A stretch of 64,000 nt of DNA from Pseudomonadota bacterium (GTDB lineage Bacteria > Desulfobacterota > Binatia > UBA1149), in assembly GCA_014382245.1 (NCBI GenBank), contig JACNKC010000048.1:2032-66031 (forward strand). Reading direction: 5' to 3'. Under the pieces are notes generated by a model that saw only the letters and a program-made list of their open reading frames with translations, ran no database searches and was not told the origin of the DNA. Position numbers and translations under genes: made by a program. Positions within the stretch are counted from its first letter, which is position 1. Every line of letters begins with the position of its first letter. Below are positions 16,067 through 35,253 of the stretch, one piece after another.

Positions 16067-16702
16067 TCAGCGTAGCAGCTCTATTTCAACTCCAGGGGTC
16101 TTGCCCCCGGTGACGTTCACGCTCACCGGTTCGGCCCTCATGCGTTCGTTCCATATCTCGAGTTCGTAGTCACCCGGTGGAACGTTGTCGATGGTGAACG
16201 CGCCAGCGCTATCGGTGACCGAGAAGTAGGGGTTGTCGCGTACCACGACGTAGGCCACCATCAGGGCGTGCAGTTTGCACAGCTGGGTGTAAGTGCCGGT
16301 CTCCTTGAAAGTCCAGGTTTTTGAACCACCCTGCCCCCAGCTTCCGAGGTCGTAGGACTCACCGTCGGGTGAGAACACCGTGTGCTCGGCTGCATCGCTG
16401 TTCACGAATTTGACAGTCGTACCCTTGAGCACGGGCAGTACCCTGGGTACGAACTGCATGTCTTTCTGGTCCATCACCGGTTGTTCGGTCGGTGTCTTGA
16501 AATCTCCAGCTATGGCCTTGATGGCGACGACGGTGTTTTTTACATAGCGCTCGCGCCCAACCACCTTGCCGCTGATGGTTCCGGCGGCCGCCTGTTCTGC
16601 GCCCAGCAACAGCAAAGCTGACATGCCCAGCAACAACGCGGGGCGCAATCGGTGGCCGATGGACGGGCGGGACGAGTAACGATGGGCGGAGATGTTTTTC
16701 AT
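16067..16702 (-). CDS. Periplasmic type-1 copper (cupredoxin, amicyanin-like) protein embedded in a CarboxypepD_reg-like fold
   Basis: Has a signal peptide. Candidate copper ligands are H in AAEHTV and C-K-L-H-A-L-M (C-x2-H-x2-M spacing). Flanking GTISGKVVG and FTIDNVPPGDYELEIW segments are typical of carboxypeptidase-regulatory-like domains. Its start overlaps the stop of the Mo subunit gene. Confidence 0.55.
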   Translation of the reverse strand: MKNISAHRYSSRPSIGHRLRPALLLGMSALLLLGAEQAAAGTISGKVVGRERYVKNTVVAIKAIAGDFKTPTEQPVMDQKDMQFVPRVLPVLKGTTVKFVNSDAAEHTVFSPDGESYDLGSWGQGGSKTWTFKETGTYTQLCKLHALMVAYVVVRDNPYFSVTDSAGAFTIDNVPPGDYELEIWNERMRAEPVSVNVTGGKTPGVEIELLR

Positions 16703-19408: not shown

Positions 19409-19993
19409 TCAGGAGTTAGCGCTGCGGCCGTACACCAGGCCCTGCAGCCCGGTCGCGTAGATGTCGTTTCCGTCGGTTTCGAGCACTACCTGCACCAGGC
19501 TCTGGGTGGCGTGACCCGATACGATCATGCCGTGACGGGTGAGGTCGAAGGTACTCAGGTGGGTGGGGCAGGGCCCCATGACCTTGCTGTCGCTCTTGTA
19601 CGAGGAGGCCAGTATTCCTCCCATGTGCGTGCACAGGGTCGAGAAAGCCACCACGTCGCCGTCCTTGCCAACACCTCCGCCGGCCTTCTCGCCGAGCTTG
19701 ATGAGCAGGTGGTTTGAGTAGGTCGCGTTGTCGTCCGGGTAGCGGAAGGGTATCGGTTTGTTGGTCACCAGTTCGTCGAGACCGGCTATGCGCTTGCGCG
19801 GGTACGGGGTACGCGTGGCTGCCACGGCACGGGTAGCACCGCCCCAGGGCGAGGTGACCAGGAGGGTGACGGTGATGGCACCGGCTCCCTCGAGGAAGCG
19901 GCGGCGTGAGATACGGCAGGGCGATTGGCCGGGGTCTGTTTCTAACCTGGCTTCGTGTTCGTCGACTTCGGGCTTCTGTATTACATCACTCAT
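19409..19993 (-). CDS. Tat-exported Rieske [2Fe-2S] small subunit (AioB/IdrB-like)
   Basis: Has a twin-arginine motif (SRRRFLEGAG) and Rieske boxes CTHMGG and CPTH. It lies immediately upstream of the Mo subunit gene. Confidence 0.8.
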   Translation of the reverse strand: MSDVIQKPEVDEHEARLETDPGQSPCRISRRRFLEGAGAITVTLLVTSPWGGATRAVAATRTPYPRKRIAGLDELVTNKPIPFRYPDDNATYSNHLLIKLGEKAGGGVGKDGDVVAFSTLCTHMGGILASSYKSDSKVMGPCPTHLSTFDLTRHGMIVSGHATQSLVQVVLETDGNDIYATGLQGLVYGRSANS

Positions 19994-21210
19994 TCGAAAA
20001 CTCCGTACCTGGGTAGTTCGGGGGGCTCCATGGTCAATTCCTCGCCGGTGAGCGATTCGAGAAAGGCGATGAGATCCTGTTTTTCGTCGTCGGCCAGCCC
20101 GAGGGGTCTTAGCACCGGCGTCTTGGTGGCCGTGCCTGTCAATAGTTTCGCGTGGTCGTCGCCGCCGCCCTGGTCGTAGAAGTCGATGACTTCCTCGAGC
20201 GTGAAAAACACGCCGTTGTGCATGTAGGGGGGCGTAAAGACCAGGTAGCGAAGCGTCGGCACCCTGAACTTGGCGATGTCGTGCTCCTGCTTGGTGCGGT
20301 AGTAGAGTCCCAGGTCTATCTTGGTGCGGCGGTATAGGTCTTCGCTCACTCCCTTGGCGAACTGCTCGAAGCGGAAGGTAATCTGCTTGAGCGGATCATC
20401 GTCGAAGACATCGTTCGGTGGCACCCCGAGGTTGTAGTACTTCTCGTTGCTGAACAGTGCGCCGTCGTGGCACTCTATGCAGCGAGCCTTGCCCTCGAAA
20501 AGTTCCTTGCCGCGCAACTCGGCTGGCCCCAGCGCGTTCTTGTCTCCGAGCATGTAGAGATCAAATGGCGTGTCTCGCTGTACGAGGGTGCGCTCGAAGG
20601 CCGCGATAGCCTTCCAGGCGTCGGGTAGCTCAGGACGCGCGTTACCGAAGACCTTCTTGAACCGCTTGTTGTACTCGGGGATTTGTCGCAGGCGTTCTTC
20701 CATCACGTCGCGCTCACCGTTTCCGGCCACGCCGCCGCGGGCGGCAGAAGGGGCCTGGGATTCGAGACTTTTTGCCGAGCCGGCCCAGAACAGCTTGCGG
20801 TAGTAAGCCGAGTTGATGATGGACTGGCAATTGCGCCAGTGGCTGGTCCCCGGGTAGCCCCGGCAGACCTCGGCACCGTCCTGCCAGCCTATGGCCGGGT
20901 CGTGGCAGGTTGCGCACGACAGGCTCACGTCGCCCGAGAGCCTGGGATCAAAGAACAGCAGCTTGCCCAGCTCTACCTTGGCAGCCGTGATCGGGTTATC
21001 GGCGGGAACCGGCGGCGGGCCGAGCGCCGCAAGGGGAGTGACGGCGCCCGGGCCCCCGTCGGTCGCCGGGCCGGTAGCGGCATCGGCAGCCACGGGGAGA
21101 AGAACCAGTCCCACCGCCGGTAGGATGGACAACAGGCCGGTAAGAATTGCTGGGCCTGCACTTGCTCGTATTTTCATGGCCAGGGAGCTCCTTGTTCTGT
21201 CGCGGCTCAT
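19990..21210 (-). CDS. Dihaem cytochrome c peroxidase (CCP/MauG family), copy 2
   Basis: Has a signal peptide and two haem motifs, CATCH and CIECH. Its stop overlaps the Rieske gene start. Confidence 0.85.
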   Translation of the reverse strand: MSRDRTRSSLAMKIRASAGPAILTGLLSILPAVGLVLLPVAADAATGPATDGGPGAVTPLAALGPPPVPADNPITAAKVELGKLLFFDPRLSGDVSLSCATCHDPAIGWQDGAEVCRGYPGTSHWRNCQSIINSAYYRKLFWAGSAKSLESQAPSAARGGVAGNGERDVMEERLRQIPEYNKRFKKVFGNARPELPDAWKAIAAFERTLVQRDTPFDLYMLGDKNALGPAELRGKELFEGKARCIECHDGALFSNEKYYNLGVPPNDVFDDDPLKQITFRFEQFAKGVSEDLYRRTKIDLGLYYRTKQEHDIAKFRVPTLRYLVFTPPYMHNGVFFTLEEVIDFYDQGGGDDHAKLLTGTATKTPVLRPLGLADDEKQDLIAFLESLTGEELTMEPPELPRYGVFE

Positions 21211-22328
21211 CAGTTGGGTACCGAGCGCCAGTCGGCTATGGCCTCGTAGGGTGGCAGGTCTATTTCACCTACCTCTATGGCGTCGCCCGACAGCGCTTCG
21301 AGGAAGGCGAGCAGGTCGGTCTTTTCGGCTGCGTTGAGATCGAGCGGCTTGAGCAAGGGGTCCCGGCCCTCGGCCGTACCGCCGCCGGCGTTGTAGAAAT
21401 CTATGACCTCCACCAGCGTGGCGATGGTGCCGTTGTGCATGTAGGGAGCGGTCCTGGACACTTCACGCAGGGTGGGAGTCACGAACTTGCCGCGGTCTTC
21501 TTCCTGCTTGCTGACGGTGAAGAAGCCAGGGTCTTCGCGGATAATCTCGAAGCCGGGCACGCCCATGAACTTGGCGAAGGATCTCAGGGTGAGATGCCTC
21601 AGCGGATCCCTGGTGATCTCGGGGTTTCCGGCCACGCCGGTGCGATGGGGCTGGTAGTCGCTCAGCATCGGCCCTTCGTGGCACTGTATGCAGCCCCCCT
21701 TGCCTTCGAACAATTGCTGCCCGCGGGTGGCCGAAGCAGACATGTTTCCCTCGTCGAAGGGCACGTTGCGCGACACGAGGGTTTTCTCGTAGGCCGAGAT
21801 GGCCTTCAGCGTCGCCCCGAAAGACGGCTCGGCGTTCATCGCCGACCTGAAGCGCTTGACGTACCCGGGTACCTGCTTGAGTCGTTCGAGCATGACGCGG
21901 CCGTCCATGTTCTGAAAATGCGACTCGGTGATCGAGTCACGCACCTGCGTCGGCATGTCCTTGCCCGTCAGGCGGCCGTCCCAGTAAAAATAGCGCGCGT
22001 GCGCCGCGTTGAGCACTGACTTCGTGTTGCGAAAGTACAGCGTGCCCGGGTAGGCGATGCCCAGCTGCTGGCCGTCGGTCCAGCCGGCCTCGGGGCGGTG
22101 GCAGGACCCGCAGGCCAGGACCGCGTCGCCCGAAAGACGCTGGTCGAAGAACAGGAGCTTACCCAGCTCGGCCAGTTCTGCCGAAGGGGCCTCGATGGCG
22201 GGCAGGGGACCGAGTGCCCGGGGTTGCGTTGTTGCTGCCGTGGCCCGATCCGCGGTGACCGCAAAACTCAAAACCAAACCGGCAAAGGCGATTCTAAGAA
22301 GACTACTGGGTCTTGTGGACATGCTCAC
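21210..22328 (-). CDS. Dihaem cytochrome c peroxidase (CCP/MauG family), copy 1
   Basis: Has a signal peptide and two haem motifs, CGSCH and CIQCH. There is a 1-nt stop/start overlap with the next peroxidase gene. Confidence 0.85.
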   Translation of the reverse strand: MSMSTRPSSLLRIAFAGLVLSFAVTADRATAATTQPRALGPLPAIEAPSAELAELGKLLFFDQRLSGDAVLACGSCHRPEAGWTDGQQLGIAYPGTLYFRNTKSVLNAAHARYFYWDGRLTGKDMPTQVRDSITESHFQNMDGRVMLERLKQVPGYVKRFRSAMNAEPSFGATLKAISAYEKTLVSRNVPFDEGNMSASATRGQQLFEGKGGCIQCHEGPMLSDYQPHRTGVAGNPEITRDPLRHLTLRSFAKFMGVPGFEIIREDPGFFTVSKQEEDRGKFVTPTLREVSRTAPYMHNGTIATLVEVIDFYNAGGGTAEGRDPLLKPLDLNAAEKTDLLAFLEALSGDAIEVGEIDLPPYEAIADWRSVPN

Positions 22329-22386
22329 TCCTTGGGGCTTTGACCGCTGCGGGTACTGTTGGTCAGCCGCTGGCCTGCAGGCTGTA

Positions 22387-22403
22387 AAGCAAGATACTTG
22401 CCG
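22387..22403 (-). promoter_or_regulatory. Candidate sigma54 (-24/-12) promoter upstream of the peroxidase/Mo-enzyme operon
   Basis: The minus strand reads cGGCAA-GTATC-TTGCt against the consensus TGGCAC-N5-TTGCW, with two mismatches. It lies about 60-75 nt upstream of the first CDS. Confidence 0.35.
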
Positions 22404-22657
22404 AATGCTGCCGCACGGCGCTGTAACCCTGAAGCTATGCTCGTTGCGAACATAAGGTTTTCTACCGCTGAAAACGGGTAGGTATTACAGGGACTTTTGT
22501 TGCTCGTCCTGCTCCCTGGAGTGGCCAGGTCGTCGAAACGCTCTTCTGGAGGGCCACCCGGCTGGTGTTCCCAAGCTCGGAATTTTTCCACCCGTGAGAA
22601 AATCCAGCGGACCGGTTTCCGGTGTCAGGGAAGAAATCGCCGGGGAGTGTGGCTGGA

Positions 22658-24745
22658 TCAGGGTTGTTGCCAGGAACGTATGAAGGAGACCAGGTCGAGT
22701 ATCTCGCCCGGTTTCAGCCACACCCCGGCGCCGGCTCCTTCGCCGAAGGCCGGCATGGGGGTGCCCGCGCGGCCACGGGCTATGGTGGCCAGCAGGAAAC
22801 CGTCGTCGGCTGCCTGCAGGAATTCAGGGTTGTTGATGGCCGGCGCGTACTCCGCATCGCCTCCACGCTTGCCTTTGCCTTTTTCGCCGTGGCAGGGGGC
22901 GCAGTAGCGTAACCAACTTGCCTTTCCGGCGGTCACGGCTTTCGCCGAGTCGTCGACCATGGGGCGGTGAATTCTCCAGGATTCGGGCTGTTCCCACTGA
23001 CGTATCCAGGCCACAAGGTCGGCTATGTCGCGGTCGGGCGTGTCGTTGTTGGATCCGACGGCGCTCATGATCTCGGCCAACGGCTGCATGGCTGTCCCGG
23101 CGCGGCCCGTCTCTATGGTCGCGGCCAACAGGGCGTCCGAAGCGTTGCGCAGCAACGATACGTTGTTGAGCTGGGAGCCCCGCGGGCTGCCCTGTCCCTG
23201 GCTGCCGTGGCAATCGGCGCAGAGTTTTTCGTAGAGCACACGGCCGCGTGTTTGGTCACCGGGTGCTGCTCGGGGAAGGGGAAGCCGCGACGGCGACTGT
23301 TGCCAGTCCCTTAGAAAGGCGAGCAGGTCGTTGAGCTGAGCGGCTTCAAGATCGCGGTGCGAAGGCATCGCTGTGCCCGGTCGACCGGAGACGATGGTCC
23401 GGGCGAGGAAGGTATCGTCGACAAGGGCCAGCAGGCCACTGGATCCGATAGCGTTGCCTATGCCTCCCTCGCCGTCCCAGCCGTGGCAGCCCATGCAGCG
23501 CGCCTCGTAGATCATCTCACCGTTGCCGGCGTTGCCCGCGCTTGAATCTGCGACGCCGGGATCCGGTCCCGTCGGTTCCCAGGAGCGCAGGTGTGCCACT
23601 ATGCGATCGATCTCGTCGCGTGCCAGGTTGCCGTGCCCGGCCCCCCAACGGGGCATTCCCGTGCCACTGCGCCCTTTCTCTATTATGAATCGATAGAAAT
23701 CGTCGCCCGCCACGGCCAGCGCCGACGGCAGGTTGAGTGTTGGGGTGTTGATCGCGTCCACGCGCCCGCCCAGCCCGTTGTCGCCGTGGCAGGCCGAGCA
23801 GAAGCCCTGGTAGAGCGTGGCGCCGTCGGCCCGGCTCGTGGCGGGGCCACGTCCGGCGGGGGCCCAGGAGTACTCGGCCGGCCCCGAGCGGCCCAGCGAC
23901 ATCATGTAGGCCGTGAGCGCCCGCGCCTCCGCTTCGCTCACGGTGGCCGGCATCACGCTGCCAGGTGATACCGAGGCCGGGTCGAGGAAGTGTCGGCTCA
24001 GCCAGCCCTCTACGTTTCGCGGGGCGTTGGAACCGATGGTAGAAAAATCAAAATCGTGGATCACGCTGTCGCCCACGTCGCTCAGGTCGGGGCCGCGCCT
24101 TCCGCCCCTGCCGTCTATGGCGTGGCAGCCCATGCAGCCCTGCTCGTTGAACAGCTGGCGTCCGCGCGAGAGCAACAGCGCGTTCTCGTTGCTGCCACGA
24201 TCGGCCCGCGTCATCAGCCCGGCGTCGCCGTGCAGGTCGGGTTCGAGGTGGCAGCGGCTGCACCTCGCTCGCAGGTGCTCGGTCGCCAGCATGGGCCGCT
24301 CCCAGTGAGCCACGCGGCCGTGTGCGTCGTCGGTTTCAGTGGCACGGCCCTGGCCCTGGTGGCAGACGGTGCAGCCGAACTTTTCTGGTGGGTGAAACTC
24401 CACGTGGCGGCCCGGGTGGGCGGCGAAGGGCCGGGGTTGGTCGGCCATGCGCGGGTCTTCGAGGCCCGCGTGGCAGGTTATGCAGCGGTCGGCTACGTCC
24501 AGCCGTGGTAGGTAGTTCTGCTGTATCTCCACGCGAAAGCCTGCCGCCGCCTGCTTGCCCGCGTCGTCGGTGGCCATCTCGTTGAGCAACAGGGCGTAGC
24601 GACTGCGCAGTCGGTACCAGTCGGCGAAGCGGTTTTCCTGGAGCGCGGCCACTACCAGCGTGGCGATGGTGGCGAGGCTGGTGACGAGCAGCGCCACCTT
24701 CATGCGTCGGTCGCTGCGGCGGGTCCTTGGGTCGAGCTCAGCCAT
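22658..24745 (-). CDS. Membrane-anchored octahaem c-type cytochrome
   Basis: Has one N-terminal TM helix and eight CxxCH motifs (CITCH, CTVCH, CSRCH, CMGCH, CSACH, CMGCH, CADCH, CAPCH). The last five sit in class-I-like modules with G(T/S)xMP Met-ligand motifs. Confidence 0.85.
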   Translation of the reverse strand: MAELDPRTRRSDRRMKVALLVTSLATIATLVVAALQENRFADWYRLRSRYALLLNEMATDDAGKQAAAGFRVEIQQNYLPRLDVADRCITCHAGLEDPRMADQPRPFAAHPGRHVEFHPPEKFGCTVCHQGQGRATETDDAHGRVAHWERPMLATEHLRARCSRCHLEPDLHGDAGLMTRADRGSNENALLLSRGRQLFNEQGCMGCHAIDGRGGRRGPDLSDVGDSVIHDFDFSTIGSNAPRNVEGWLSRHFLDPASVSPGSVMPATVSEAEARALTAYMMSLGRSGPAEYSWAPAGRGPATSRADGATLYQGFCSACHGDNGLGGRVDAINTPTLNLPSALAVAGDDFYRFIIEKGRSGTGMPRWGAGHGNLARDEIDRIVAHLRSWEPTGPDPGVADSSAGNAGNGEMIYEARCMGCHGWDGEGGIGNAIGSSGLLALVDDTFLARTIVSGRPGTAMPSHRDLEAAQLNDLLAFLRDWQQSPSRLPLPRAAPGDQTRGRVLYEKLCADCHGSQGQGSPRGSQLNNVSLLRNASDALLAATIETGRAGTAMQPLAEIMSAVGSNNDTPDRDIADLVAWIRQWEQPESWRIHRPMVDDSAKAVTAGKASWLRYCAPCHGEKGKGKRGGDAEYAPAINNPEFLQAADDGFLLATIARGRAGTPMPAFGEGAGAGVWLKPGEILDLVSFIRSWQQP

Positions 24746-24749
24746 ATAG

Positions 24750-26312
24750 TCAGTGCACCGGCCAGTGGGAGCGGCTCCAGTAAAAATCCCAGTTTGGACC
24801 GCGCAACTCCATGCCGACGTAGGTCATCACGACGAAGCCGGCCACGAAGCAGGTAAACAGGGCGATGGCGCCCAGTCGTGTTGAGCCGGTGTTGCGCAGT
24901 ATGACCAGCGACCAGGCGGCGTAGCCCAGCGTGAGCAGCGAGCCGGGGTTGACGAAGATGATGACGATCTGAGGTATGCCGGGGAACCAGTTGCGCAGCC
25001 AGCCGAAGTTAACCGGTATGGCCACCCAGGCCACGGCCAGCAGCACCGCGAAGGCGAGGCTCTGCAGGGCGATCTTGCGCCCGGCACGCCCGCTCATGTA
25101 GACCCCGGCCGGTTCTGCTTCGCGGTCCAGGTAGGGAATCAACGCCAGGCCGACCATGGCGACAGCGGGTATTACCAGTCCTCCCATGAAGGCCGAGTAC
25201 GAGACCATTTCCTGCAGGCCGAGGAAGTACCACGGCGCCTTGGCCGGGTTCTCGGGTACGTTGGGGTTGGCGATTTCCTTGAGCGGAGCGTCGTACAGCA
25301 CTCCCAGTACCAGGCAGGCCAGCGTACAGAGCATGAACACGACCAGCTCGCCCCTGAGCAGGTAGGGCCAGGTGGCGACGGTGTCGCCCGGCTCGTTGTC
25401 GGTGGCCGCCGAGCGGTCGCGTACAACCGCCATCAGCGACCAGGTCTTGTCGTTTTCGCCACCCGGTGGCGGCACGAGGTCGGGTGCCTGCCCGACAGCC
25501 CCGCTGGTCTGCTCGGCTTGCGGTCGGCCCAGGCCTCCGTCCTTGCGTATGCGCCAGAAGTGAACAGAGGCCAGCATTACCAGGACGATGGGCAGCAGCA
25601 TTACGTGCAGCAGGTAGAAACGCGTGAGCGCGTCCTGCCCGACTTCACCGGCACCGAGTAACAGCTCTTTCTGTAAGCCGCCCGGGTCGAACCATTGGGT
25701 AATTCCCAGCGCATCGGTCAACTCTCTTGGCGAGGAGGCTATGTTGGCGCCTATGGTGATCGCCCAGTAGGCCAACTGGTCCCAGGGCAGGAGGTAGCCG
25801 GTGAACGACAGCGCCAGGGTGACGACGAATAGAGCCATGCCCAGTAACCAGTTGAACTCGCGCGGGGCCTTGTAGCTGGCGGTGTAGAACACCCTGCACA
25901 TGTGCAGCATGACCACGATGACCATCAGGTGCGCGCCCCAGCGGTGGACGTTGCGTATCAGCCGGCCCGAGGGAACCACGTAGTGGATGTCCTTCATGCT
26001 GTTGTAGGCCAGCTCGGTTGACGGGGTGTAGTAGACCATCAGCAGGATGCCGGTGACCAGCAGTATGATGAAGAACGAAAGCGCGGCGATGCCCAGGCCG
26101 AAGGTCGCCGTCAATCCCAGCGTGCGAACGTGCACGCGGGTGGGGTGCAGGTGCAGGAACAGGCTTGAGAACACTGCCTGCGACCTGCCGCGTTCGGAGC
26201 GCGGACGGCCGTGGCGGAAAATCGAGTAGCTGAGCGTGTCGGGGAGACGGCGCAGGTTGGCTAGGAAAGCAGCCAGGCCACGCTTCTGGTCGAACCGTTT
26301 CATACCCGCCAC
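24750..26312 (-). CDS. Fused cytochrome b (b6-like N-part plus subunit-IV-like C-part with extra helices)
   Basis: Has conserved His pairs (RNVHRWGAHLMV, HVMLLP...SVHFW). The Qo-motif region reads KAPWYFLGLQE. Confidence 0.85.
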   Translation of the reverse strand: MAGMKRFDQKRGLAAFLANLRRLPDTLSYSIFRHGRPRSERGRSQAVFSSLFLHLHPTRVHVRTLGLTATFGLGIAALSFFIILLVTGILLMVYYTPSTELAYNSMKDIHYVVPSGRLIRNVHRWGAHLMVIVVMLHMCRVFYTASYKAPREFNWLLGMALFVVTLALSFTGYLLPWDQLAYWAITIGANIASSPRELTDALGITQWFDPGGLQKELLLGAGEVGQDALTRFYLLHVMLLPIVLVMLASVHFWRIRKDGGLGRPQAEQTSGAVGQAPDLVPPPGGENDKTWSLMAVVRDRSAATDNEPGDTVATWPYLLRGELVVFMLCTLACLVLGVLYDAPLKEIANPNVPENPAKAPWYFLGLQEMVSYSAFMGGLVIPAVAMVGLALIPYLDREAEPAGVYMSGRAGRKIALQSLAFAVLLAVAWVAIPVNFGWLRNWFPGIPQIVIIFVNPGSLLTLGYAAWSLVILRNTGSTRLGAIALFTCFVAGFVVMTYVGMELRGPNWDFYWSRSHWPVH

Positions 26313-26316
26313 TGCT

Positions 26317-26784
26317 TCAGGCCCTGAACCAGGTGCCCGCGGGCACTTCGCGGCCGGAGTCGACCGTGAGTCGTCCGTCGATGCTGCGGCTGACCTCGAG
26401 CCAGCGCAGCCCGCGCGGCGCCGGTCCGGCTACCACCGAGCCGTCCTTGGCAAAAGAAGAGCCGTGGCAAGGGCAGGCGAACCCCGTTTCGCTGCGATCG
26501 ACGATGCAGCCGAGGTGGGTGCACACCATGGATATGGCCGCGAAACCTTCCCGGCGTGACACCAGCAGGACGTTCTTGTCGGGAACAACCTGCATGCTGC
26601 CCACCGGGTAGTCCCGGCTGCGGCCGATCCTGAACCTGCGCGATGTTTCGGGCAACACGCGGGGGTTGGGCAGGCGTACCATGCCCGCCAAGGAGCCGAG
26701 CACGGCCAGTGCCGCGGTCCACCAGCCGGCAAGGCCGAGGAAGTCCCTGCGGGCAATGGGTTCGGGTTCAAGTCGTCCCGCCAC
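26317..26784 (-). CDS. Rieske iron-sulfur protein of the bc-type complex
   Basis: Has RRDFLGLAG, a TM anchor, and CTHLGC...CPCHGS. Confidence 0.85.
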   Translation of the reverse strand: MAGRLEPEPIARRDFLGLAGWWTAALAVLGSLAGMVRLPNPRVLPETSRRFRIGRSRDYPVGSMQVVPDKNVLLVSRREGFAAISMVCTHLGCIVDRSETGFACPCHGSSFAKDGSVVAGPAPRGLRWLEVSRSIDGRLTVDSGREVPAGTWFRA

Positions 26785-28696
26785 TTGTTTCCTCCTGCCG
26801 CGGAGCAGGTTCTACCTGCACCGGTTCTCGCTTGAACACGTAGCGTTCCATGGTTATCGCGCCTTCGGGGCAGCGCTGGGCGCAGAGCGCGCAGCGTATG
26901 CAGGCGCTTTCGTCCTTGATCAGTGCCGAGGCTTCGGTTGCGGGTAGCTGGCCCAGGCGATCGTGGACGGTGGCGGTGAGGCCTGCGTTGCCCTGGAGCC
27001 TTTCTATGCCGACGATGCGCAGGCAGTCCGACGGGCATACGTCTACGCACCCACCGCAGAGGATGCACGTGCTGCCGTTGAAAATTGTGTTGACACCGCA
27101 GTCGAGGCAGCGCGAGGCTTCGCGGCGTGCCTGCGCGTGGTCGAAACCCAGGTCCACTTCGGCAGACTGCGACAGGCTGCGTTGCCCGGCGGTGACCACT
27201 GGCGGGTCGCAGCGGCTTATTGATTCGTAGCCCTGCTCACGTTGATAGTCGGCCAGCACGATGTGCAGTTCGGTGTCGTGAACGCCGAGCTCGCGACCCG
27301 AGATGTCATGGTAGATAGAGCGCGCAGTTCGCTTGCCCGACGCTACGGCGTCGATGAGCAGGCGGGGGCCGTAGGCCAGGTCGCCGGCTACGTAGATGCC
27401 CTGCGTTCTGCTGCGGCCGCTGTCGGCGTCGCAGGGCAGCAGGCCGCGCTCATCGAGTTCTATGCCGTCGCGTTCGGGATCAATGAACGACAAGTCCACG
27501 GCCTGCCCGGCGGCGACGATGACAGTGTCGCAGGCTATGGTAACGGTGTCCGCGGCGTCGAAACTGGGAGAGAAACGGCCCTCGGAGTCGAAGCAGCTCG
27601 TGCAGCGCAGCATGGTGATGGCCGTTATGAACCCTTGCTCGTCCCGGTGTATCTCGCCCGGACCCAGTCCGTTGTGGCGCACGATTCCTTCCTCGGCTCC
27701 CTCTATGATTTCGACATCGTCGGCGGGCATTTCTTCCAGCGACTCGAGTGAGCACAGGTGGATCTCGGAGAAACGCTGCTGTCTCAGCGCGGTACGCGCG
27801 GCGTCGAGGCTGGTCTGCCTGACCACGGTGCGGCCCACGTCGTAGGCTACGTTACCGCCGCCTATGACAACGATGCGGTGGCCCAGCCGGGTCGTGTTGC
27901 CGAGCGCGACATCGCGCAGGAACTCAACGCCGCCGAGCACGCCTGGCCCTTTTGAACCCGGAAAATCCAGCATGCGGGAGCGCTTGGCTCCCACCGAAAG
28001 CAGCACCGCGTCGTGGCGCTGCCTGAGCTCGGCTACGCTCACGTCGCTGCCCACGCGGCAGCCGGTCATGGCGCGCACGCCCAGTTCTTCTATGACGGCT
28101 ACCTCGGCGCGGATGAGGTCGCGCGGCAGTCGGTACTCGGGTATTCCCAGCGCGAGCATGCCGGCGAGTACGGGTTCGCTTTCGTACACGGTTACCTCGA
28201 AGCCCAGCAGCGCCAGGTCGTGAGCGGCAGCGAGACCCGCTGGACCGCCCCCGACTATCCCCACCGACTTGCCGGTGACTGGTGTGACCTCGCCGCGCGA
28301 GATCGAGCGCAGCAGCGGCAGGAGTTCTTCGCGGCCCTCGCAGTCGTGCTCGCTGTTGCGGGCGGCGCTGCTGCGCAGGAAGTCAACCAGGTCGCCACCG
28401 TAGGAGTGATGGGTGAGAAAACTGTCGCAGGCAAAGCGCTTGAGCGCCCGGATGGCCACCGGCTTGTCAATCTCGCCGCGGCGGCAGGCTTTCTCGCAGG
28501 GAGCGCCGCAGACCCGTCCACAGATCGAGGCCAAGGGGTTGGGGCCGCGGGCTATGAGGTAGGCCTGTTCCAGCTCGCCGCTTGCTATGGCCCGCACGTA
28601 GCCGCGCGCGTCGGTGCCCACCGGGCAGGCGGACTGGCACTTCACCTGTTCTTTCCAGTACCCGTTGAGGGGTACTCTTGTGTTGATTGCTTGCAC
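26768..28696 (-). CDS. GltD/SudA-like NAD(P)-binding FAD flavoprotein with N-terminal Fe-S region and C-terminal 2x[4Fe-4S] ferredoxin domain
   Basis: Has CQSACPVGTD...CGRVCGAPCEKAC, GIVGGGPAGLAAAHDLALLGFEVTVYE...GIPEYRLP, and C-terminal CILCGGCVDVCP and CIRCALCAQRCP. The start is set at an in-frame GTG (28696) because a sigma54 box lies inside the tracked TTG extension, so the start is uncertain. Its stop overlaps the Rieske gene start by 17 nt. Confidence 0.75.
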   Translation of the reverse strand: MQAINTRVPLNGYWKEQVKCQSACPVGTDARGYVRAIASGELEQAYLIARGPNPLASICGRVCGAPCEKACRRGEIDKPVAIRALKRFACDSFLTHHSYGGDLVDFLRSSAARNSEHDCEGREELLPLLRSISRGEVTPVTGKSVGIVGGGPAGLAAAHDLALLGFEVTVYESEPVLAGMLALGIPEYRLPRDLIRAEVAVIEELGVRAMTGCRVGSDVSVAELRQRHDAVLLSVGAKRSRMLDFPGSKGPGVLGGVEFLRDVALGNTTRLGHRIVVIGGGNVAYDVGRTVVRQTSLDAARTALRQQRFSEIHLCSLESLEEMPADDVEIIEGAEEGIVRHNGLGPGEIHRDEQGFITAITMLRCTSCFDSEGRFSPSFDAADTVTIACDTVIVAAGQAVDLSFIDPERDGIELDERGLLPCDADSGRSRTQGIYVAGDLAYGPRLLIDAVASGKRTARSIYHDISGRELGVHDTELHIVLADYQREQGYESISRCDPPVVTAGQRSLSQSAEVDLGFDHAQARREASRCLDCGVNTIFNGSTCILCGGCVDVCPSDCLRIVGIERLQGNAGLTATVHDRLGQLPATEASALIKDESACIRCALCAQRCPEGAITMERYVFKREPVQVEPAPRQEETSGGTT

Positions 28697-28769
28697 TTTG
28701 CGCCGCGAGACCGCATGCCGCGCGCCGCGGTCGACCGGCGGCCGATCGCGGGGGCGACAGGCGGTGGCA

Positions 28770-28784
28770 GCAAGCCCTGTGCCA
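28770..28784 (-). promoter_or_regulatory. Consensus sigma54 (-24/-12) promoter upstream of the Rieske/cyt b operon
   Basis: The minus strand reads TGGCAC-AGGGC-TTGC-T, an exact match to TGGCAC-N5-TTGCW. It lies about 75 nt upstream of the GTG at 28696. Confidence 0.5.
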
Positions 28785-28975
28785 CAGGGCGCAGCCGGGT
28801 CCGGCCCCAGCGATAGCAAACAGAATGGGGCTTTGCACGCATAGGAAAGGCAGGCAAACAGCGGTCGGATTCCGCCTTGTGCCAAGCAAACGGTTTTGTA
28901 TTCCCAGTATTGAGAAAATGAAACGTGGCCGGCTGGAGCCAGGCTCCGCCCCCGGCCAACTCGCTGGCAAGCTCC

Positions 28976-30763: not shown

Positions 30764-33496
30764 CTATCCCGCTTGGAGAGCGGCGAGGATCCTGTGGGCG
30801 TGCTGTTCGTAGTAGACAGCACCGCAGGCATGAAAGCGGCCCGCGGCCAGCTCCAGTAGTTCGGTCGCCGAACGCGTACGCCCGGTTTTGATTTTCAACT
30901 CGGCCAGGGCCACGGCAGCGTGGGACGCCACGAGCGGCGCGCGCATGCTCAAGGCTGACTCCAGTGCGCGTTGCAGGTAGCCCTCGGCCGCTTCGAAGTC
31001 GCCGGTCGTTGTTGCCAGCTGTCCCAGCCTGAGCGTCACCGGCCCGGTGTAGTCTACGCCCACCCCCGTGCAGACGTGGCTGTCGGCCCAGGGCTCCAGG
31101 ATGGTGGCGATCCTGCGGGCTCCATCGACGTCTTCGAGCGCCGTGGCGAGGTCGGCCAGCGCCGCTATGGTAGCCAGCCATACCATGTCTACGGGCAAGT
31201 CATTCATCCCGTCCATCAGCTCGTGGTAGTAGGGTTCGGCTTCGGCGGTGCGGTCGAGTTCGACGAGCAACAAGGCCAGGCTCGACTTGACGGGAACCAG
31301 CTCGGGCCTGTTTGCCAGGATATCGCGCAGTGGTTGTTCGAGTTCGGCTTGTTGCCCCCGGCAGCGCCAGATGCCGAACACGTGCACCTGGTACTTGAGC
31401 GTGGCTGTCGAGGCATCCACCTTGAGGCCGTAGTCCAGCTCGGACTCGGCCCAGCGCAGGGCCTGCTCGAGGTCACCGTCGAGCATCGCGCGCAGGGACC
31501 GGGCACTGTCGGCACGCCAGCGAGCCCATGGCTGACCGGTCCTTCGCGCCAGCTCCTCGATGCTTTCCATCTCGGCTTCGGCTTTTTCGCGGGAGCCCAT
31601 TTCCAACAAGGTGCCGGCGCGGGCCGTGCGGCCAACTACTTCCATCATCCAGTCTTTTCTCCGCGCCGCGAGAAGGATGAGCCGCTCAGAGGTGTCCAGT
31701 CGCGCGGAGGAGTCGGCCGGACCCCACAACACCCACAGTCTCGAAGCCAGTGCCTGTATGAGCACATCGGTGTTTCCCAGTGCCTCGGCTTCGGCCACAG
31801 CGCTTTCGCTCAGCTTCCCGGCTTCGGGGTCGCTGGCGGCACCCAGCATCATGGCCAATCGCGATATCAACATAACCCTGATCTTTGACGAGCCTTGGTC
31901 GAGCGCTTCGAGTGCTTCGCGCAGCATGGCAAGGGCCTTCGGGTTGCCACCCGAGGGTGCTTGCCAGGAGGCGGTGTAGCCGTAGCCCAGGGACGCGCGG
32001 GCGAGCGAGAGGGTGTCGCCGTTATCGCGTGCGGCGGCCGCCGCCTCGACAAAAAGCGCGTCGGCCTTTTTCGATTCGCCCATGAGGCGATAGCATTCGG
32101 CCTGGGCCAGTCCGTATAAAAGGTTGGCCCGATCGTCGGCGTCGATGGCAGACTGCAGATAGGCTACCGCGTTTTCGTAGGCAGTCGATGCCATGGCTTC
32201 GCGCGCCGCCTGCTCCAGGCTCCACACGAGCTTGTCTCGGTCAGCCAGGCTACCGCTATCCTGGAACTGGCCCGCGATTGCGGCAGCGCTTACCGGCTCG
32301 CCGGCGGTAGCGCGCTCGTACAGGGTGGTCGCCACGGCCAGGTGTAACTTGCGGCGGATCTCCTTGTCTATGTCGTCGTAGAATGCGTCGCGCATTATCG
32401 CGTGGGAAAAACTCCAGCCCGGCAAGCCCTCTTCGTCGGGCACGACAAGTTCGGCCTCGTTGGCCTTGGCGATAGCCTCGGCCACCACTGCGGGGGCGTC
32501 GCTGCCCTTCAGCAGCCCCGAGGCCTTGCAGACCGAGGCCAGCATCTCGCGGTTAAACCCCTGGCCAATTACAGCGGCTGTCCCGAGTATCTTGCGATGC
32601 AGTTCGCTGCTCCCTCCCATGCGCGACACGAGTACGCGCCGCAGGCTCACCGGGGTCTTGAGGTCCAGGGAGGCCAGGCGATCAACCCTCTGCGCCTGCC
32701 CCGATCCGGGCTTGAGCAGTTCGGTAATATAAAGGGGATTGCCGCCGGTGTAGCGGTCGATCAGCTCCACCTGGGCCGGCCCGGCGTGCCGCCCGGTCAG
32801 CGATGAGACCAGCAAACCGATTTCCTGCTTGCCCAGCCCCTGCAGCTTGAGATCTACTATCGGGTCGGGGAGGACGGCCCTCCATGGACTACCCTCGGCA
32901 CGCTCCCTGCCCACCAACAGCACCATGAGTTGTCCTGGAAGCCGAGCGCGTAGCAGATGGCGCAGCAGGTATCCCGACGCGGGGTCGGCTCCCTGGGCGT
33001 CGTCGATGACCATGAGCAGCGGGGAGTGTCGCAGCAGGTCGGTGAGAAGGGAGGTCACGGCTTCGAACAGGGCCACGCGGGCGTCGGTCGTGGTGGAGGG
33101 GGTAGAGCGGGAGGGGGAGCCATTGGCCGATCCGCCTACCCAGCCAGGGGCGATGCGTTCGATCAGCGAGTCGGGCCCGCGGTGTTTCGCGGCCAGGTCA
33201 TCGAGCCCGGGCGGGAGCGAAGAAAGCAGGCGACTCCATATGAGAAAAGGCGGCCCGTTCTGACCTGCCCAGCAGCAGGCGCGCCAGACCATTGCGCCGC
33301 GGTCGTTGGCGCCGTCGGCAAAGCGCGCCGCGAGCGAGGTCTTGCCCATGCCCGCGGGGCCGACCAGGTAGCCTACGCCGGCGCCGTTATTATTGGCCAG
33401 GGCTTCGTCGAGTTGCGACAGCTCCCTGCTGCGGCCCACGAAGGTCGTGCCGGCGCCAGCCGGAGCGGCCGGCGATTGTTTGCGATTGTCGGCCAT
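30764..33496 (-). CDS. STAND-type ATPase (AAA_16-like P-loop) with long TPR/helical-repeat C-terminus
   Basis: Has FVGRSRELSQLDEAL...GPAGMGKTSLA (Walker A), LLMVIDDAQ (Walker B) and a C-terminal repeat-rich helical region. No recognisable HTH or effector domain was seen. Confidence 0.6.
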   Translation of the reverse strand: MADNRKQSPAAPAGAGTTFVGRSRELSQLDEALANNNGAGVGYLVGPAGMGKTSLAARFADGANDRGAMVWRACCWAGQNGPPFLIWSRLLSSLPPGLDDLAAKHRGPDSLIERIAPGWVGGSANGSPSRSTPSTTTDARVALFEAVTSLLTDLLRHSPLLMVIDDAQGADPASGYLLRHLLRARLPGQLMVLLVGRERAEGSPWRAVLPDPIVDLKLQGLGKQEIGLLVSSLTGRHAGPAQVELIDRYTGGNPLYITELLKPGSGQAQRVDRLASLDLKTPVSLRRVLVSRMGGSSELHRKILGTAAVIGQGFNREMLASVCKASGLLKGSDAPAVVAEAIAKANEAELVVPDEEGLPGWSFSHAIMRDAFYDDIDKEIRRKLHLAVATTLYERATAGEPVSAAAIAGQFQDSGSLADRDKLVWSLEQAAREAMASTAYENAVAYLQSAIDADDRANLLYGLAQAECYRLMGESKKADALFVEAAAAARDNGDTLSLARASLGYGYTASWQAPSGGNPKALAMLREALEALDQGSSKIRVMLISRLAMMLGAASDPEAGKLSESAVAEAEALGNTDVLIQALASRLWVLWGPADSSARLDTSERLILLAARRKDWMMEVVGRTARAGTLLEMGSREKAEAEMESIEELARRTGQPWARWRADSARSLRAMLDGDLEQALRWAESELDYGLKVDASTATLKYQVHVFGIWRCRGQQAELEQPLRDILANRPELVPVKSSLALLLVELDRTAEAEPYYHELMDGMNDLPVDMVWLATIAALADLATALEDVDGARRIATILEPWADSHVCTGVGVDYTGPVTLRLGQLATTTGDFEAAEGYLQRALESALSMRAPLVASHAAVALAELKIKTGRTRSATELLELAAGRFHACGAVYYEQHAHRILAALQAG

Positions 33497-34069: not shown

Positions 34070-35068
34070 TCAGCCGATGGGAGGAAAGCCACCCGGGAAT
34101 GGGCCACCGGGCACCTGGCCACCGGGCACCTGGCCACCGGGCACCTGGCCACCGGGCACCTGGCCACCGCCACCGGGTGAAGGTCCGACAGGCGGCGCAG
34201 GGGGCACTGCAGGCACGGTGGTCGTGGTGACAGGCACCGTGGTCGTGGTTACTGGCACCGTGGTCGTGGTGACAGGCACGGTGGTCGTGGTTACATTATC
34301 GTCATAGCCGTCGTCGTCGCAGTCCTCATCTTCGTCGAGGATACCGTCGTCATCGTCGTCCGCGTCGTCCTCGTCTGGTACGCCGTCACCGTCATCGTCT
34401 TCGTCCACATGGTCGGGGCTGCCGTCGTTGTCGGTGTCCTCGCTGCGTACCTTGCGGGCCAGCAGTTCGCAGCCGTCGCTCTCGAGCTTGATTTCGACGT
34501 GTTCGCCGCCGTTGTGGGCTACCCGCCACGCCAGCTCTTCGCAGCTGTCGGCGCCCTTGAAGCGCGTGGCCGAAGTCAACACTACCTCTATGCACAGCAC
34601 CCGCAGAAAACCGTCGGTACTTGCCACCGGGCACTGAATTGACTCCACCGGCCCCGAAAGGCTGGCGTCGAGTTCGTCTGTCGGGTCGAGGTCGTACCCA
34701 TCGACGTACCCATCGTCGTCGCTGTCCGGGTTCGTGGGGTCGCTGCCCAGCTCGACTTCCTCACCGTCTTCCAGCCCGTCATCGTCGCTGTCCGGGTCAA
34801 GAGGATCGCAACCCAACTCCAGTTCGTCGCCGTCGTCGAGGCCATCGTCATCGCTGTCCTTGTTCTTCGGGTCTGTGCCGAGCTCCTTCTTTTCGAGGCA
34901 GTTACTGAGTCCGTCCTGGTCGCGATCGTAGCGCCCTTTTCGTTCGGTCAGCTCCTGTTGCTCCTCGCAGCTCGCCGATGCGGGCAGGGCTGTGATCGGG
35001 GCCAGCAGCAGGGCTACGGTGGCTGCGAAGGTGGCGAGAATAGCGTTAATATTTTGTCGATACGTCAT
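34070..35068 (-). CDS. Secreted acidic calcium-binding-repeat protein (thrombospondin type 3-like D-x-D-x-D-G repeats) with a repetitive C-terminus
   Basis: The ATG at 35068 is preceded by an AAGGAG RBS, and the signal peptide ends PASA. Has repeated DSDDDGLxDGxE motifs and a C-terminal (TTTTVPV)x4 and (GQVPG)x4. Confidence 0.65.
   Translation of the reverse strand: MTYRQNINAILATFAATVALLLAPITALPASASCEEQQELTERKGRYDRDQDGLSNCLEKKELGTDPKNKDSDDDGLDDGDELELGCDPLDPDSDDDGLEDGEEVELGSDPTNPDSDDDGYVDGYDLDPTDELDASLSGPVESIQCPVASTDGFLRVLCIEVVLTSATRFKGADSCEELAWRVAHNGGEHVEIKLESDGCELLARKVRSEDTDNDGSPDHVDEDDDGDGVPDEDDADDDDDGILDEDEDCDDDGYDDNVTTTTVPVTTTTVPVTTTTVPVTTTTVPAVPPAPPVGPSPGGGGQVPGGQVPGGQVPGGQVPGGPFPGGFPPIG
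34102..34295. repeat. In-frame coding tandem repeats: 15-bp unit x4 (34102-34161) and 21-bp unit x4 (34212-34295)
   Basis: Direct reading shows ggccaccgggcacct x4 and ggcac(c)gtggtcgtggt(g/t)ac(a/t) x4. Confidence 0.9.
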
Positions 35069-35253
35069 GGTGTTTACTCCTTTTTCTGCGCCCCCCGGGG
35101 GCCAGGTCGCTGTTGTCGCGGCAAAACAACCGAACTGCAGAGGCGGGGGCGGGCTGGGGAGGTTGAATGCAAGCGGTGTGCCGATATGGGCAGCACGCGG
35201 GGAAAGGGCGGAGAGCATCCGTCCTTGAGGACTGGTTACACGCCTGGTGCCGG

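Follow-up and report, generated by a model that had tools for sequence, protein, structure and literature searches.

What does a Rieske/cytochrome b complex do with a nucleotide-binding flavoprotein and a multihaem cytochrome? This question is raised by a four-gene operon of a Binatia bacterium, located on contig JACNKC010000048.1 within a 64-kb stretch of DNA (64,000 nucleotides, GC content about 65%; the whole stretch is called the window below, and positions refer to it). A first-pass annotation, made without database searches, had described the operon as encoding a non-canonical bc complex. From sequence comparison we infer that the products of the four genes, the flavoprotein included, assemble into a single membrane complex of the b6f-like 'APWY' lineage. 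We propose that in this complex the usual quinone-reducing site (Qn site, with haem cN) is replaced or short-circuited by the cytoplasmic flavoprotein, which is of the NfnB/GltD type. The function we favour is quinol-based electron bifurcation, in which one electron would pass to iodate and the other to nicotinamide adenine dinucleotide (NAD+). It is put forward tentatively, as a reading that may well be correct but that we would stop short of calling probable. The genes and the promoter-like site in front of them are the following.

Positions 26768–28696, minus strand: flavoprotein gene, 642 residues, GTG start.
Positions 26317–26784, minus strand: Rieske gene, 155 residues.
Positions 24750–26312, minus strand: cytochrome b gene, 520 residues, fused.
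Positions 22658–24745, minus strand: cytochrome c gene, 695 residues, eight CxxCH motifs.
Positions 28769–28784, minus strand: sigma-54-type promoter consensus TGGCACAGGGCTTGCT, a perfect match 72 nucleotides upstream of the flavoprotein GTG.

The coordinates agree with the annotated arrangement of four linked minus-strand genes with one 17-nucleotide overlap and two 4-nucleotide gaps. The flavoprotein stop lies over the Rieske start, so that both reading frames share positions 26768–26784, and the gaps are found at the Rieske–cytochrome b (26313–26316) and cytochrome b–cytochrome c junctions (24746–24749). Upstream, the flavoprotein frame stays open to a TTG at 28885 (705 residues), which is the start on record for the contig. 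Flavoproteins of the family are 625–650 residues long and begin about ten residues ahead of a conserved VP(D/L)xxYWK. GTG 28696 is the better start, because it fits this length and leaves the sigma-54 consensus noncoding; on the same two grounds the start chosen in the first-pass annotation is retained.

TGGCACAGGGCTTGCT is the sole perfect sigma-54 consensus in the window, with 0.06 expected by chance. It is located in the 280-nucleotide interval between glnS and the flavoprotein gene and is kept upstream of the homologous operon in L083, L003 and L005 (L-numbers are our handles for individual loci). A generic scan of the window for sigma-70 promoters and terminators gave sites no more often than chance, and Rfam had no match within the window. 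No gene for a sigma-54 enhancer-binding protein was found among the neighbours scanned, whereas the idr locus of Azonexus has one adjoining. Together with the overlapping and nearly abutting frames, the sigma-54 site argues for the flavoprotein gene as the first of the bc operon rather than a separate unit. Independent transcription of this gene, which had been named as evidence that would speak against a joint complex, is not borne out, since just one strong promoter-like signal is seen, and it precedes the flavoprotein gene.

The flavoprotein matches Fer4_20 (2.5e-19), Pyr_redox_2 (3.3e-23) and a C-terminal dicluster Fer4/Fer4_7 in Pfam, and its top NCBIfam model is PRK12771, 'NAD(P)-binding protein' (1e-114). 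An N-terminal Fer4_20 domain is followed by Rossmann domains for flavin adenine dinucleotide (FAD) and NAD(P) and then by an RCLDCG motif; a 2x[4Fe-4S] ferredoxin domain forms the C-terminal part. All 17 cluster cysteines are invariant when 27 homologues are aligned. Cys20, 24, 59, 63, 67, 71, 530 and 533 correspond to two NfnB/GltD-type clusters, and Cys544, 547, 550, 554, (558), 599, 602, 605 and 609 to the dicluster ferredoxin domain. The FAD motif GxGPAG (GxGxxG) and the second Rossmann motif GGGNVA are likewise invariant. The protein, as judged from these motifs, would bind four [4Fe-4S] clusters, FAD and a nicotinamide nucleotide; a hydrophobicity scan found no transmembrane or hydrophobic segment, and it is predicted to be soluble and cytoplasmic. 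Domains and alignment are thus in line with the earlier description of a GltD-like FAD/NAD(P) protein with Fe-S motifs and a C-terminal 2x[4Fe-4S] ferredoxin domain.

Its nearest solved relatives by sequence and fold are NfnABC of Caldicellulosiruptor (9bov), StnABC of Sporomusa (8oh5), NfnABC of Thermococcus (9n5u), NfnB/NfnI-L and GltD. The query of the fold search was an AlphaFold2 model of the monomer (mean pLDDT, the predicted local distance difference test score, 67.7, with low values in the cluster loops), and the search with this model of moderate confidence agrees with the Nfn/GltD relationship. The fold, the two N-terminal-type [4Fe-4S] clusters, FAD and the nucleotide site are shared with the NfnB, NfnABC, StnABC and GltD modules, and the RCLxCG motif and the dicluster ferredoxin domain after the Rossmann domains with NfnABC/StnA. 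In contrast to the Nfn/Stn modules, however, the window flavoprotein is not fused to a formate-dehydrogenase-like domain, has no NfnA or HydB-type partners and is encoded in a membrane bc operon.

A further difference from NfnB and GltD concerns the nucleotide. All five aligned solved homologues have Y-R-R before E-M-P-A, whereas the window flavoprotein has S316-L-E318, and this S-L-E is invariant across the family alignment. In Rossmann folds, an acidic residue ending the second strand goes with NAD, and arginines go with NADP. Since S-L-E replaces Y-R-R, this rule suggests NADH rather than NADPH as the nucleotide, and NADPH specificity is doubtful. Of the annotated 'NAD(P) flavoprotein', the nucleotide-binding flavoprotein in a bc operon is therefore retained, but its motif points to NADH over NADPH, and the cN cysteine of the anammox type is absent from the accompanying cytochrome b.

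The Rieske protein (PF00355, 1.2e-11) has a Tat-like RRDFLG motif, one transmembrane helix and the boxes CTHLGC and CPCHGSSF. The latter is of the S-F type, which has been classed as mid/high potential (PMC4122944); the family tally is 47 S-F, 17 S-Y and one A-F. In cytochrome b, residues 67–258 match Cytochrome_B/b6 (1.4e-37) and residues 314–432 are ExtQ/subunit-IV-like. Nine hydrophobic peaks are found, four in the b6-like and five in the subunit-IV-like part. The Pfam and NCBIfam domains thus confirm a Rieske protein and a fused cytochrome b of 520 residues, although the best NCBIfam models for the latter, ExtP (245.6, cut-off 290) and ExtQ (55.3, cut-off 150), both score below cut-off. 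Across the family, cytochrome b occurs fused (about 520 residues), shorter (about 445 residues) or split (about 255 residues plus a separate subunit IV).

Among PDB sequences, cytochrome b scores 130 bits to b6 and at most about 102 bits to bc1 cytochrome b, both over the N-terminal half only. All four haem ligands aligned to b6 (His123, His137, His236 and His251) are kept. The motif APWY of the quinol-oxidising (Qo) site (residues 359–362) is invariant in the family and lies inside an invariant NPAKAPWYFLGLQE stretch. An 'APWY clade' of cytochrome b with uncharacterised members was defined by Kao and Hunte in 2014 (PMC4122944), who predicted mid-to-high potentials for its Rieske partners and speculated about reverse operation of its complexes. 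The window cytochrome b fits this clade, which includes Geobacter Cbc/ExtP-ExtQ-type proteins: APWY, an S-F/S-Y Rieske box and a patchy spread over many phyla are common to both, but no flavoprotein subunit is described in that paper.

The likeness to b6f extends over several subunits. For the N-terminal half of cytochrome b the best alignment is to b6 (E about 1e-36), its C-terminal half resembles subunit IV, the Rieske protein is PetC-like, and a cupredoxin encoded downstream may act like plastocyanin. Unlike b6f, the window complex lacks cytochrome f and the Cys35 for haem cN, has APWY instead of PEWY, fused halves instead of split PetB/PetD and extra helices, and adds an N-terminal histidine and the cytoplasmic flavoprotein. 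Canonical bc1, with its monohaem cytochrome c1 and an eight-helix cytochrome b bearing a bc1-type Qi site, differs in that the window complex has no c1 homologue and a cytochrome b nearer to b6, as aligned over the N-terminal half.

Two positions of cytochrome b deserve attention. Cys35 of b6, the haem cN ligand, aligns with Gly72, and this column is G, Y, R or A in 59 family sequences. The absent cysteine is consistent with the loss of a b6f-type Qn site. The other position is a fifth histidine, His54, which lies in an N-terminal FLHLHP motif before helix A and is invariant in 59 of 59 family sequences. In one comparison, a b6-type cytochrome b from a Pirellulales locus unlinked to the flavoprotein had the cN cysteine and lacked the FLH motif. 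As a separate observation, cytochrome b of L006 and L009 (Abyssobacteria, uncultured metagenome-assembled genome, MAG) has a cysteine one residue before the cN position (ATCGVG).

The cytochrome c subunit has one N-terminal transmembrane helix and CxxCH motifs at residues 88, 125, 162, 204, 316, 417, 509 and 615, and matches five class-I cytochrome c stretches and a c7-like region in Pfam. Three haems 37 residues apart follow the membrane anchor and precede five class-I domains. This layout is constant in the family (anchor, three haems about 37 residues apart, variable class-I domains), with 5–10 haems in total and a fourth haem about 27–58 residues after the third, at 27–29 residues in most. 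An octahaem cytochrome c had been annotated; the eight motifs, the anchor and the place of c1/f hold, but Pfam and the family spacing identify it as a modular variant and not as an HAO-type octahaem protein. Domains and motifs together support a non-canonical bc complex with a GltD/NfnB-type flavoprotein and a multihaem cytochrome replacing c1/f. At one locus (L001, Latescibacterota CP070763.1, about 14170–14270) the gene after cytochrome b opens like an anchored cytochrome but, beyond a stretch of N, reads as a membrane protein with no relation to it. A haem-less fourth gene was considered there and rejected, as the stretch is a masked run of N in the record.

Does the flavoprotein belong to the complex at all? 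A scan of one genome per species gave 582 flavoprotein relatives, and the best 80 loci were fetched and searched by tblastn with the four window proteins; 59 loci at 36% flavoprotein identity or more and 8 below 36% were assessable. In 54 of the 59 species representatives the flavoprotein gene is adjacent to the Rieske and cytochrome b genes. The order is flavoprotein–Rieske–cytochrome b in 51 loci and flavoprotein–cytochrome b–Rieske in three (L065, L066 and L069, the Rieske gene of L069 being in fact upstream of the flavoprotein gene). Three further loci have Rieske, cytochrome b and cytochrome c genes within 6 kb, one has an unrelated arrangement and one no bc genes. Below 36% identity, bc linkage was found in none of the 8 assessable loci.

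The species-representative loci carry at least 15 phylum- or class-level taxon labels, namely, among others, Acidobacteriota (many orders), Planctomycetota, Verrucomicrobiota, Chlamydiota (Waddliaceae, Parachlamydiaceae), Calditrichaceae, Nitrospirae, Ignavibacteriota, Acidimicrobiia, Omnitrophota, Hydrogenedentota, Abyssobacteria and 'Deltaproteobacteria' MAGs. Databases hold thousands of flavoprotein relatives, more than 120 of them at 59% identity or more; those of the latter with source names come from Latescibacterota, Eisenbacteria, Binatia, Planctomycetota and Verrucomicrobia. Separate look-ups found the same four genes in a Latescibacterota chromosome and on other contigs. With dozens of unrelated genomes sharing it, the four-gene arrangement goes well past anything that chance would give. 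Hence, the profile and synteny searches suggested in the first-pass annotation recover the domains and a gene arrangement conserved across phyla, and the lack of conservation that would have spoken against the complex was not observed.

These data bear on a fortuitous adjacency, in which the flavoprotein would be an independent cytoplasmic GltD/Nfn-like enzyme encoded beside a bc operon. GltD-like proteins are indeed common in many contexts, and the homologues below 36% identity are not bc-linked. We nevertheless find this explanation scarcely credible in view of the 17-nucleotide overlap with the Rieske gene, the adjacency over many phyla and the anammox-type loci, where the flavoprotein gene sits between those for Rieske and cytochrome b. 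Moreover, the Kuenenia subunits co-migrate according to a study cited in PMC12954380. A separate case are L062 and L064 (Capsulimonadaceae), whose flavoproteins lie inside the bc-linked clade of a neighbour-joining tree, yet no Rieske or cytochrome b gene is found within 10 kb. Secondary separation or a different use of the flavoprotein may be the reason.

In the closest subclade (flavoprotein identity of 50% or more), identities between phyla are 50–66% for the flavoprotein, 38–65% for Rieske and 27–47% for cytochrome c. The flavoprotein is here about as conserved as cytochrome b and more conserved than the other two; in more distant subclades cytochrome b is the most conserved subunit. It could be argued that the complex is an ordinary quinol:cytochrome c oxidoreductase of an iodate reductase (Idr) pathway and the flavoprotein an accessory, such as a redox sensor, a safety valve for over-reduced b haems or an assembly factor. 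The published iodate model needs a bc-type complex that feeds IdrAB via a periplasmic carrier (PMC8692401), and the module adjoins Idr genes in the window, L083 and L022. However, the conservation of the flavoprotein, its invariant cofactor ligands and the rarity of its separation from Rieske/cytochrome b are more than expected of an accessory, and the b6f-type Qn haem ligand is absent. We therefore consider an ordinary Q cycle with an accessory flavoprotein improbable.

Complexes of this kind are already known from anammox genomes. Rieske/cytochrome b complexes with an NAD(P) oxidoreductase are encoded by Kuste4569–4574 and Kustd1480–1485 of Kuenenia stuttgartiensis (Kartal et al. 2013, as cited in PMC12954380). 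Hauser et al. (2025; PMC12954380) determined potentials of +303 and +335 mV for two Kuenenia Rieske proteins. In their AlphaFold3 models, His43 (Kuste4571) or His62 (Kustd1481) of both cytochrome b monomers bind an extra haem b on the dimer axis, electrons pass from this haem to the four FeS clusters and the FAD in the NAD(P) oxidoreductase, and subunit IV has five helices. A complexome study, again as cited there, found all subunits of the Kuenenia complex to co-migrate.

The best PDB match of the window Rieske protein is the Kuenenia Rieske protein 9rk4 (4.6e-23), and the second Kuenenia structure, 9rk3, is within the top three; the PDB sequence searches returned no solved complex of the flavoprotein-bearing Rieske/cytochrome b type. 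For a comparison of all subunits, anammox-type loci were pulled from metagenomes with the 9rk4 sequence (Rieske domains 65–84% identical) and stand in for the Kuenenia genes. Their gene order is Rieske, flavoprotein, cytochrome b, subunit IV, cytochrome c. The window flavoprotein is 32–36% identical to theirs and colinear over the full length (E 1e-91 to 1e-121); Rieske is 37–43%, cytochrome b 46–49%, subunit IV 38–40% and the trihaem region of cytochrome c 26–30% identical. Anammox-type cytochrome b has the same LHLHP and NPAKAPWYF(L/A)GLQE motifs and keeps the cN cysteine (TWCMGG). His54 of the window is plausibly the equivalent of Kuenenia His43/His62.

In the neighbour-joining tree of flavoproteins the anammox type is sister to all other bc-linked members, and the non-bc paralogues lie outside. 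The window complex is thus homologous to the anammox type in all subunits and belongs to a separate, much larger sister clade. At the nucleotide motif, L091 and L149 have Y-R-R, and L123 and L144 C-L-E-S; this split may reflect the two Kuenenia complexes and different NADP/NAD preferences. The anammox-type loci with C-L-E-S (L123, L144 and L069) also show an octahaem cytochrome with the trihaem spacing of the window family.

Common to the window and anammox complexes are a colinear flavoprotein, a Rieske protein with a high-potential-type box, a b6-like cytochrome b with the LHLHP histidine motif and the identical NPAKAPWYFLGLQE Qo motif, a subunit-IV-like part of about five helices and a multihaem cytochrome with a transmembrane anchor. 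They differ in gene order, with the flavoprotein ahead of Rieske in the window and between Rieske and cytochrome b in anammox, and in the fusion of cytochrome b with subunit IV in the window. Gly72 of the window stands in place of the cysteine of TWCMGG, and S-L-E in place of the Y-R-R of L091 and L149, the loci nearest to Kuste4569 by Rieske. The partner enzyme is an Idr-type molybdoenzyme, and an HAO-type partner is absent. By its sequence, the window copy is a distinct variant, set apart by its sister clade, the lack of the cN cysteine, the fused cytochrome b, the NADH-type motif and the link to Idr and cupredoxin genes. The suspected kinship to the anammox complexes is thus seen subunit by subunit, beginning with the 9rk4 match. 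The statement that such complexes are essentially uncharacterised also agrees with our searches, which found no solved structure and, as prior work, the anammox Rieske subunits and models (PMC12954380).

How would electrons move in such a complex? In the favoured bifurcation, which corresponds to the scheme proposed for the anammox homologues, quinol would be oxidised at Qo. The high-potential electron would pass through Rieske, the trihaem module and the class-I haem domains to the cupredoxin and/or IdrAB and on to iodate. The other electron would cross the membrane through haems bP and bN to, probably, an extra haem between the two His54 of the dimer, and from there reach NAD+ through the four [4Fe-4S] clusters and FAD. 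The net reaction would be 2 QH2 + NAD+ + 2 oxidised acceptors -> 2 Q + NADH + 2 reduced acceptors, with protons released outside and charge separated across the membrane. Within this scheme we infer three points: an extra haem, the preferred nucleotide and the way in which the electrons run.

Bifurcation is favoured because homologous complexes have high measured Rieske potentials, because the APWY motif occurs with an S-F Rieske signature and because the b6f-type haem ligand of the Qn site is lost. Likewise, the cofactor ligands of the flavoprotein are strictly conserved, the flavoprotein resembles bifurcating Nfn/Stn modules and His54 is common to anammox cytochrome b. Finally, the module is repeatedly coupled to molybdoenzymes with high-potential acceptors (Idr-type, Nap-like and type II dimethyl sulfoxide (DMSO)-reductase/Nar-Nxr-like), and such oxyanion partners would supply the driving force.

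Several points weigh against bifurcation. To our knowledge, the reaction is biochemically unproven for any member of the family, the anammox homologues included. How the flavoprotein docks, the presence of an extra haem and how low the b-haem potentials lie are matters of structural models or of deduction. A missing cN cysteine does not prove that a quinone-reducing site is missing, and S-L-E is also carried by some non-bc paralogues, so that the motif is uninformative on the bc complex specifically. Moreover, members of the family abound in presumed heterotrophs (Acidobacteriota, Planctomycetota, Verrucomicrobiota and environmental Chlamydiota), which would draw no obvious benefit from NADH made out of quinol.

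The last point leads to the explanation that we rank as the main rival, in which electrons enter with NADH. The flavoprotein would then be a built-in NADH dehydrogenase: FAD would reduce the FeS chain and, with or without the extra haem, bN and a quinone on the N side of the membrane, and the resulting quinol would be oxidised at Qo. The complex would then be an NADH:cytochrome c (or cupredoxin/iodate) oxidoreductase complete in itself, working with a Q-loop. The same anatomy permits either electron direction, and the step from NADH to quinone is strongly downhill. Heterotrophs, Chlamydiota among them, are oxidisers rather than makers of NADH, S-L-E would fit a catabolic nucleotide if it is NADH-specific, and this direction was discussed for the anammox enzymes (PMC12954380). 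On the other hand, cytochrome b lacks the cysteine for haem cN with which b6f-type enzymes form their Qn site. In addition, a high-potential Rieske protein with APWY implies very low b-haem potentials, which would be needless here (PMC4122944; PMC12954380), and the route is energy-wasteful compared with complex I, as stated in PMC12954380. Taken together, NADH input appears rather unlikely, and quinol bifurcation is retained as the working model.

Further evidence on the direction of electron flow comes from the genes downstream of the bc operon, six tightly packed genes that form an idr-like block.

Positions 22329–22657, minus strand: spacer between the bc operon and the idr-like operon, 329 nucleotides, 79% identical to the spacer of L083.
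Positions 22388–22403, minus strand: sigma-54-like site CGGCAAGTATCTTGCT in this spacer before the idr-like genes, two mismatches, kept in L083.
Positions 19990–22328, minus strand: two genes of the dihaem cytochrome c peroxidase/MauG family, IdrP1/IdrP2-like (CCP_MauG, 1e-34 and 1e-42).
Positions 19409–19993, minus strand: IdrB-like Rieske small subunit (Pfam/NCBIfam).
Positions 16699–19380, minus strand: IdrA-like molybdopterin large subunit (Pfam/NCBIfam, identity).
Positions 16067–16702, minus strand: secreted cupredoxin with a type-1 Cu motif H...CKLHALM and a C-terminal CarboxypepD_reg-like domain (Pfam).
Positions 14918–16033, minus strand: putative outer-membrane porin, last gene of the idr-like operon (Porin_5, 3.7e-22).

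The site CGGCAAGTATCTTGCT is not significant by itself. The IdrA-like subunit passes the NCBIfam cut-off for the arsenite-oxidase family. It shares 54% identity with homologues encoded on plasmid-class replicons of Azonexus, Vibrio and Thiothrix and only 29–30% with genuine AioA, including the NT-26 and Alcaligenes types. The gene order of the Azonexus plasmid locus is peroxidase, peroxidase, small subunit, large subunit, c-type cytochrome, moaA. Because of these identities and of the two peroxidase genes typical of iodate reductase clusters, the neighbour enzyme is assigned to the Idr type by its likeness to idrP-P-B-A-type loci, with the plasmid homologues and genuine AioA as references. The first-pass annotation had placed an Aio/Idr-type enzyme directly downstream; the position across the 329-nucleotide spacer and the Idr part of the assignment stand, but the Aio part does not.

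By analogy, an Idr-type neighbour would be a reductase with a very positive acceptor couple, which favours electron flow towards it. The alternative is a complex run in reverse, in which the Aio/Idr-type enzyme would deliver electrons of a periplasmic substrate and these would be pushed on to NAD(P)+. Such operation was speculated for the APWY clade (PMC4122944), and the large subunit does lie above the arsenite-oxidase cut-off. However, running in reverse needs a low-potential electron from the b-haem side, hence NAD(P)H would be consumed and not made, and the neighbour has the identities and the peroxidase genes of the Idr type. The earlier suggestion of NAD(P)H formation from a periplasmic donor is thus not upheld, as in the published proposal NAD(P)H is made in the forward, quinol-oxidising direction, and we regard reverse operation as very improbable.

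The block can be compared with the iodate reduction island idrABP1P2 of Reyes-Umana et al. (2021; PMC8692401), for which a model was proposed with quinol electrons reaching IdrAB via the bc1 complex and cytochrome c551. Two peroxidases, a Rieske small and a molybdopterin large subunit, in the order of the Azonexus locus, occur in both, and a supply of electrons from quinol through a bc-type complex fits the published model. In the window, however, cupredoxin and porin replace the small c-type cytochrome, the genes of a flavoprotein-bearing bc-type supplier lie next door, and the host belongs to Binatia and not to the Proteobacteria. Among named hits, the GlnS encoded beside the bc operon is nearest to Ca. 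Binatia MAGs (70% identity), with Myxococcota next (66%).

The ten-gene combination of bc and Idr genes recurs twice. In L083, an 81%-identical relative, the gene order of the window is kept as far as the contig extends. In L022 (Calditrichaceae MAG CAYVXE010000042.1, 1794–15426) all ten genes are on one strand with the Idr block upstream of the bc block, in the order porin, peroxidase, peroxidase, IdrB, IdrA, cupredoxin, flavoprotein, Rieske, cytochrome b, pentahaem cytochrome. Since the Idr proteins of L022 are more similar to those of the window (56–69% identity) than the bc proteins (35–56%), the comparison suggests that its Idr block moved horizontally and joined a resident bc module. Of the 80 loci, 13 have a cupredoxin homologue; in 12 its gene directly precedes that of the flavoprotein, and in L012 it lies downstream; most belong to an Acidobacteriota subclade with split cytochrome b. 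The cupredoxin is a plausible recurrent fifth component, a candidate for a plastocyanin-like acceptor or periplasmic electron shuttle.

Other loci couple the module to other molybdoenzymes. A type II DMSO-reductase/Nar-Nxr-like alpha-beta-gamma set with an EB_dh haem subunit lies directly downstream in 16 loci (L004, L006, L008, L009, L015, L019–L021, L023, L024, L026, L028–L030, L067 and L084). L084 passes the curated cut-off, L008 is close to it (66% identical), and a divergent 1145-residue alpha form is found in the 14 others, mostly Acidobacteriota. For these Acidobacteriota Mo and FeS genes, alternative complex III (ACIII, ActB) was considered and rejected, because alpha, beta and EB_dh-gamma are encoded separately, as in type II DMSO reductases. 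A Nap/Fdh-like molybdoenzyme with NapG/NapH-like FeS proteins follows the module in L002 and seven species-representative loci (L003, L005, L011, L013, L014, L017 and L031).

Two further genes of the window are noted. An AAA_16 ATPase of 910 residues with TPR repeats and a MalT/LuxR-like architecture, in which no DNA-binding domain was detected, is encoded just upstream of glnS (30764–33496, minus strand). A very acidic open reading frame of 438 residues (34070–35386, minus strand) has Asp-rich calcium-binding-like repeats and, at the C-terminus, four TTTVPV and four GGQVP repeats; its product could be placed in no family.

Anammox bacteria are hard to work with. Whether they form NAD(P)H by quinol bifurcation has been a question ever since such complexes came to notice in anammox genomes. 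In a full-text literature search we found no account of the family beyond the anammox and APWY-clade papers, nor of its coupling to molybdoenzymes, although key reviews were outside the scope of this search and an earlier mention is possible. Most members, spread over many phyla, have the simpler form with one flavoprotein, a fused cytochrome b and no haem cN. As the module is hard-wired to varied periplasmic molybdoenzymes, many more candidate systems become available for biochemistry. Bifurcation predicts acceptor-dependent reduction of NAD+, 2.5 b haems per monomer and very low b-haem potentials.

It is conceivable, if on balance doubtful, that these complexes form a widespread and overlooked class, with at least 15 taxon labels and thousands of proteins, in which bifurcation at Qo makes NADH from quinol without a Q cycle. 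The reaction would be paid for by periplasmic iodate, nitrate, chlorate-type oxyanions or copper proteins, and an extra haem between the monomers of the dimer would replace the Qn site and haem cN. If so, they would add a third functional type to bc1 and b6f among the Rieske/cytochrome b enzymes and be more than a peculiarity of anammox bacteria. If instead NADH is the electron donor, a novel type of NADH:cytochrome c oxidoreductase would nonetheless be at hand. The module would represent a specific electron supply for Idr-type enzymes outside the Proteobacteria.

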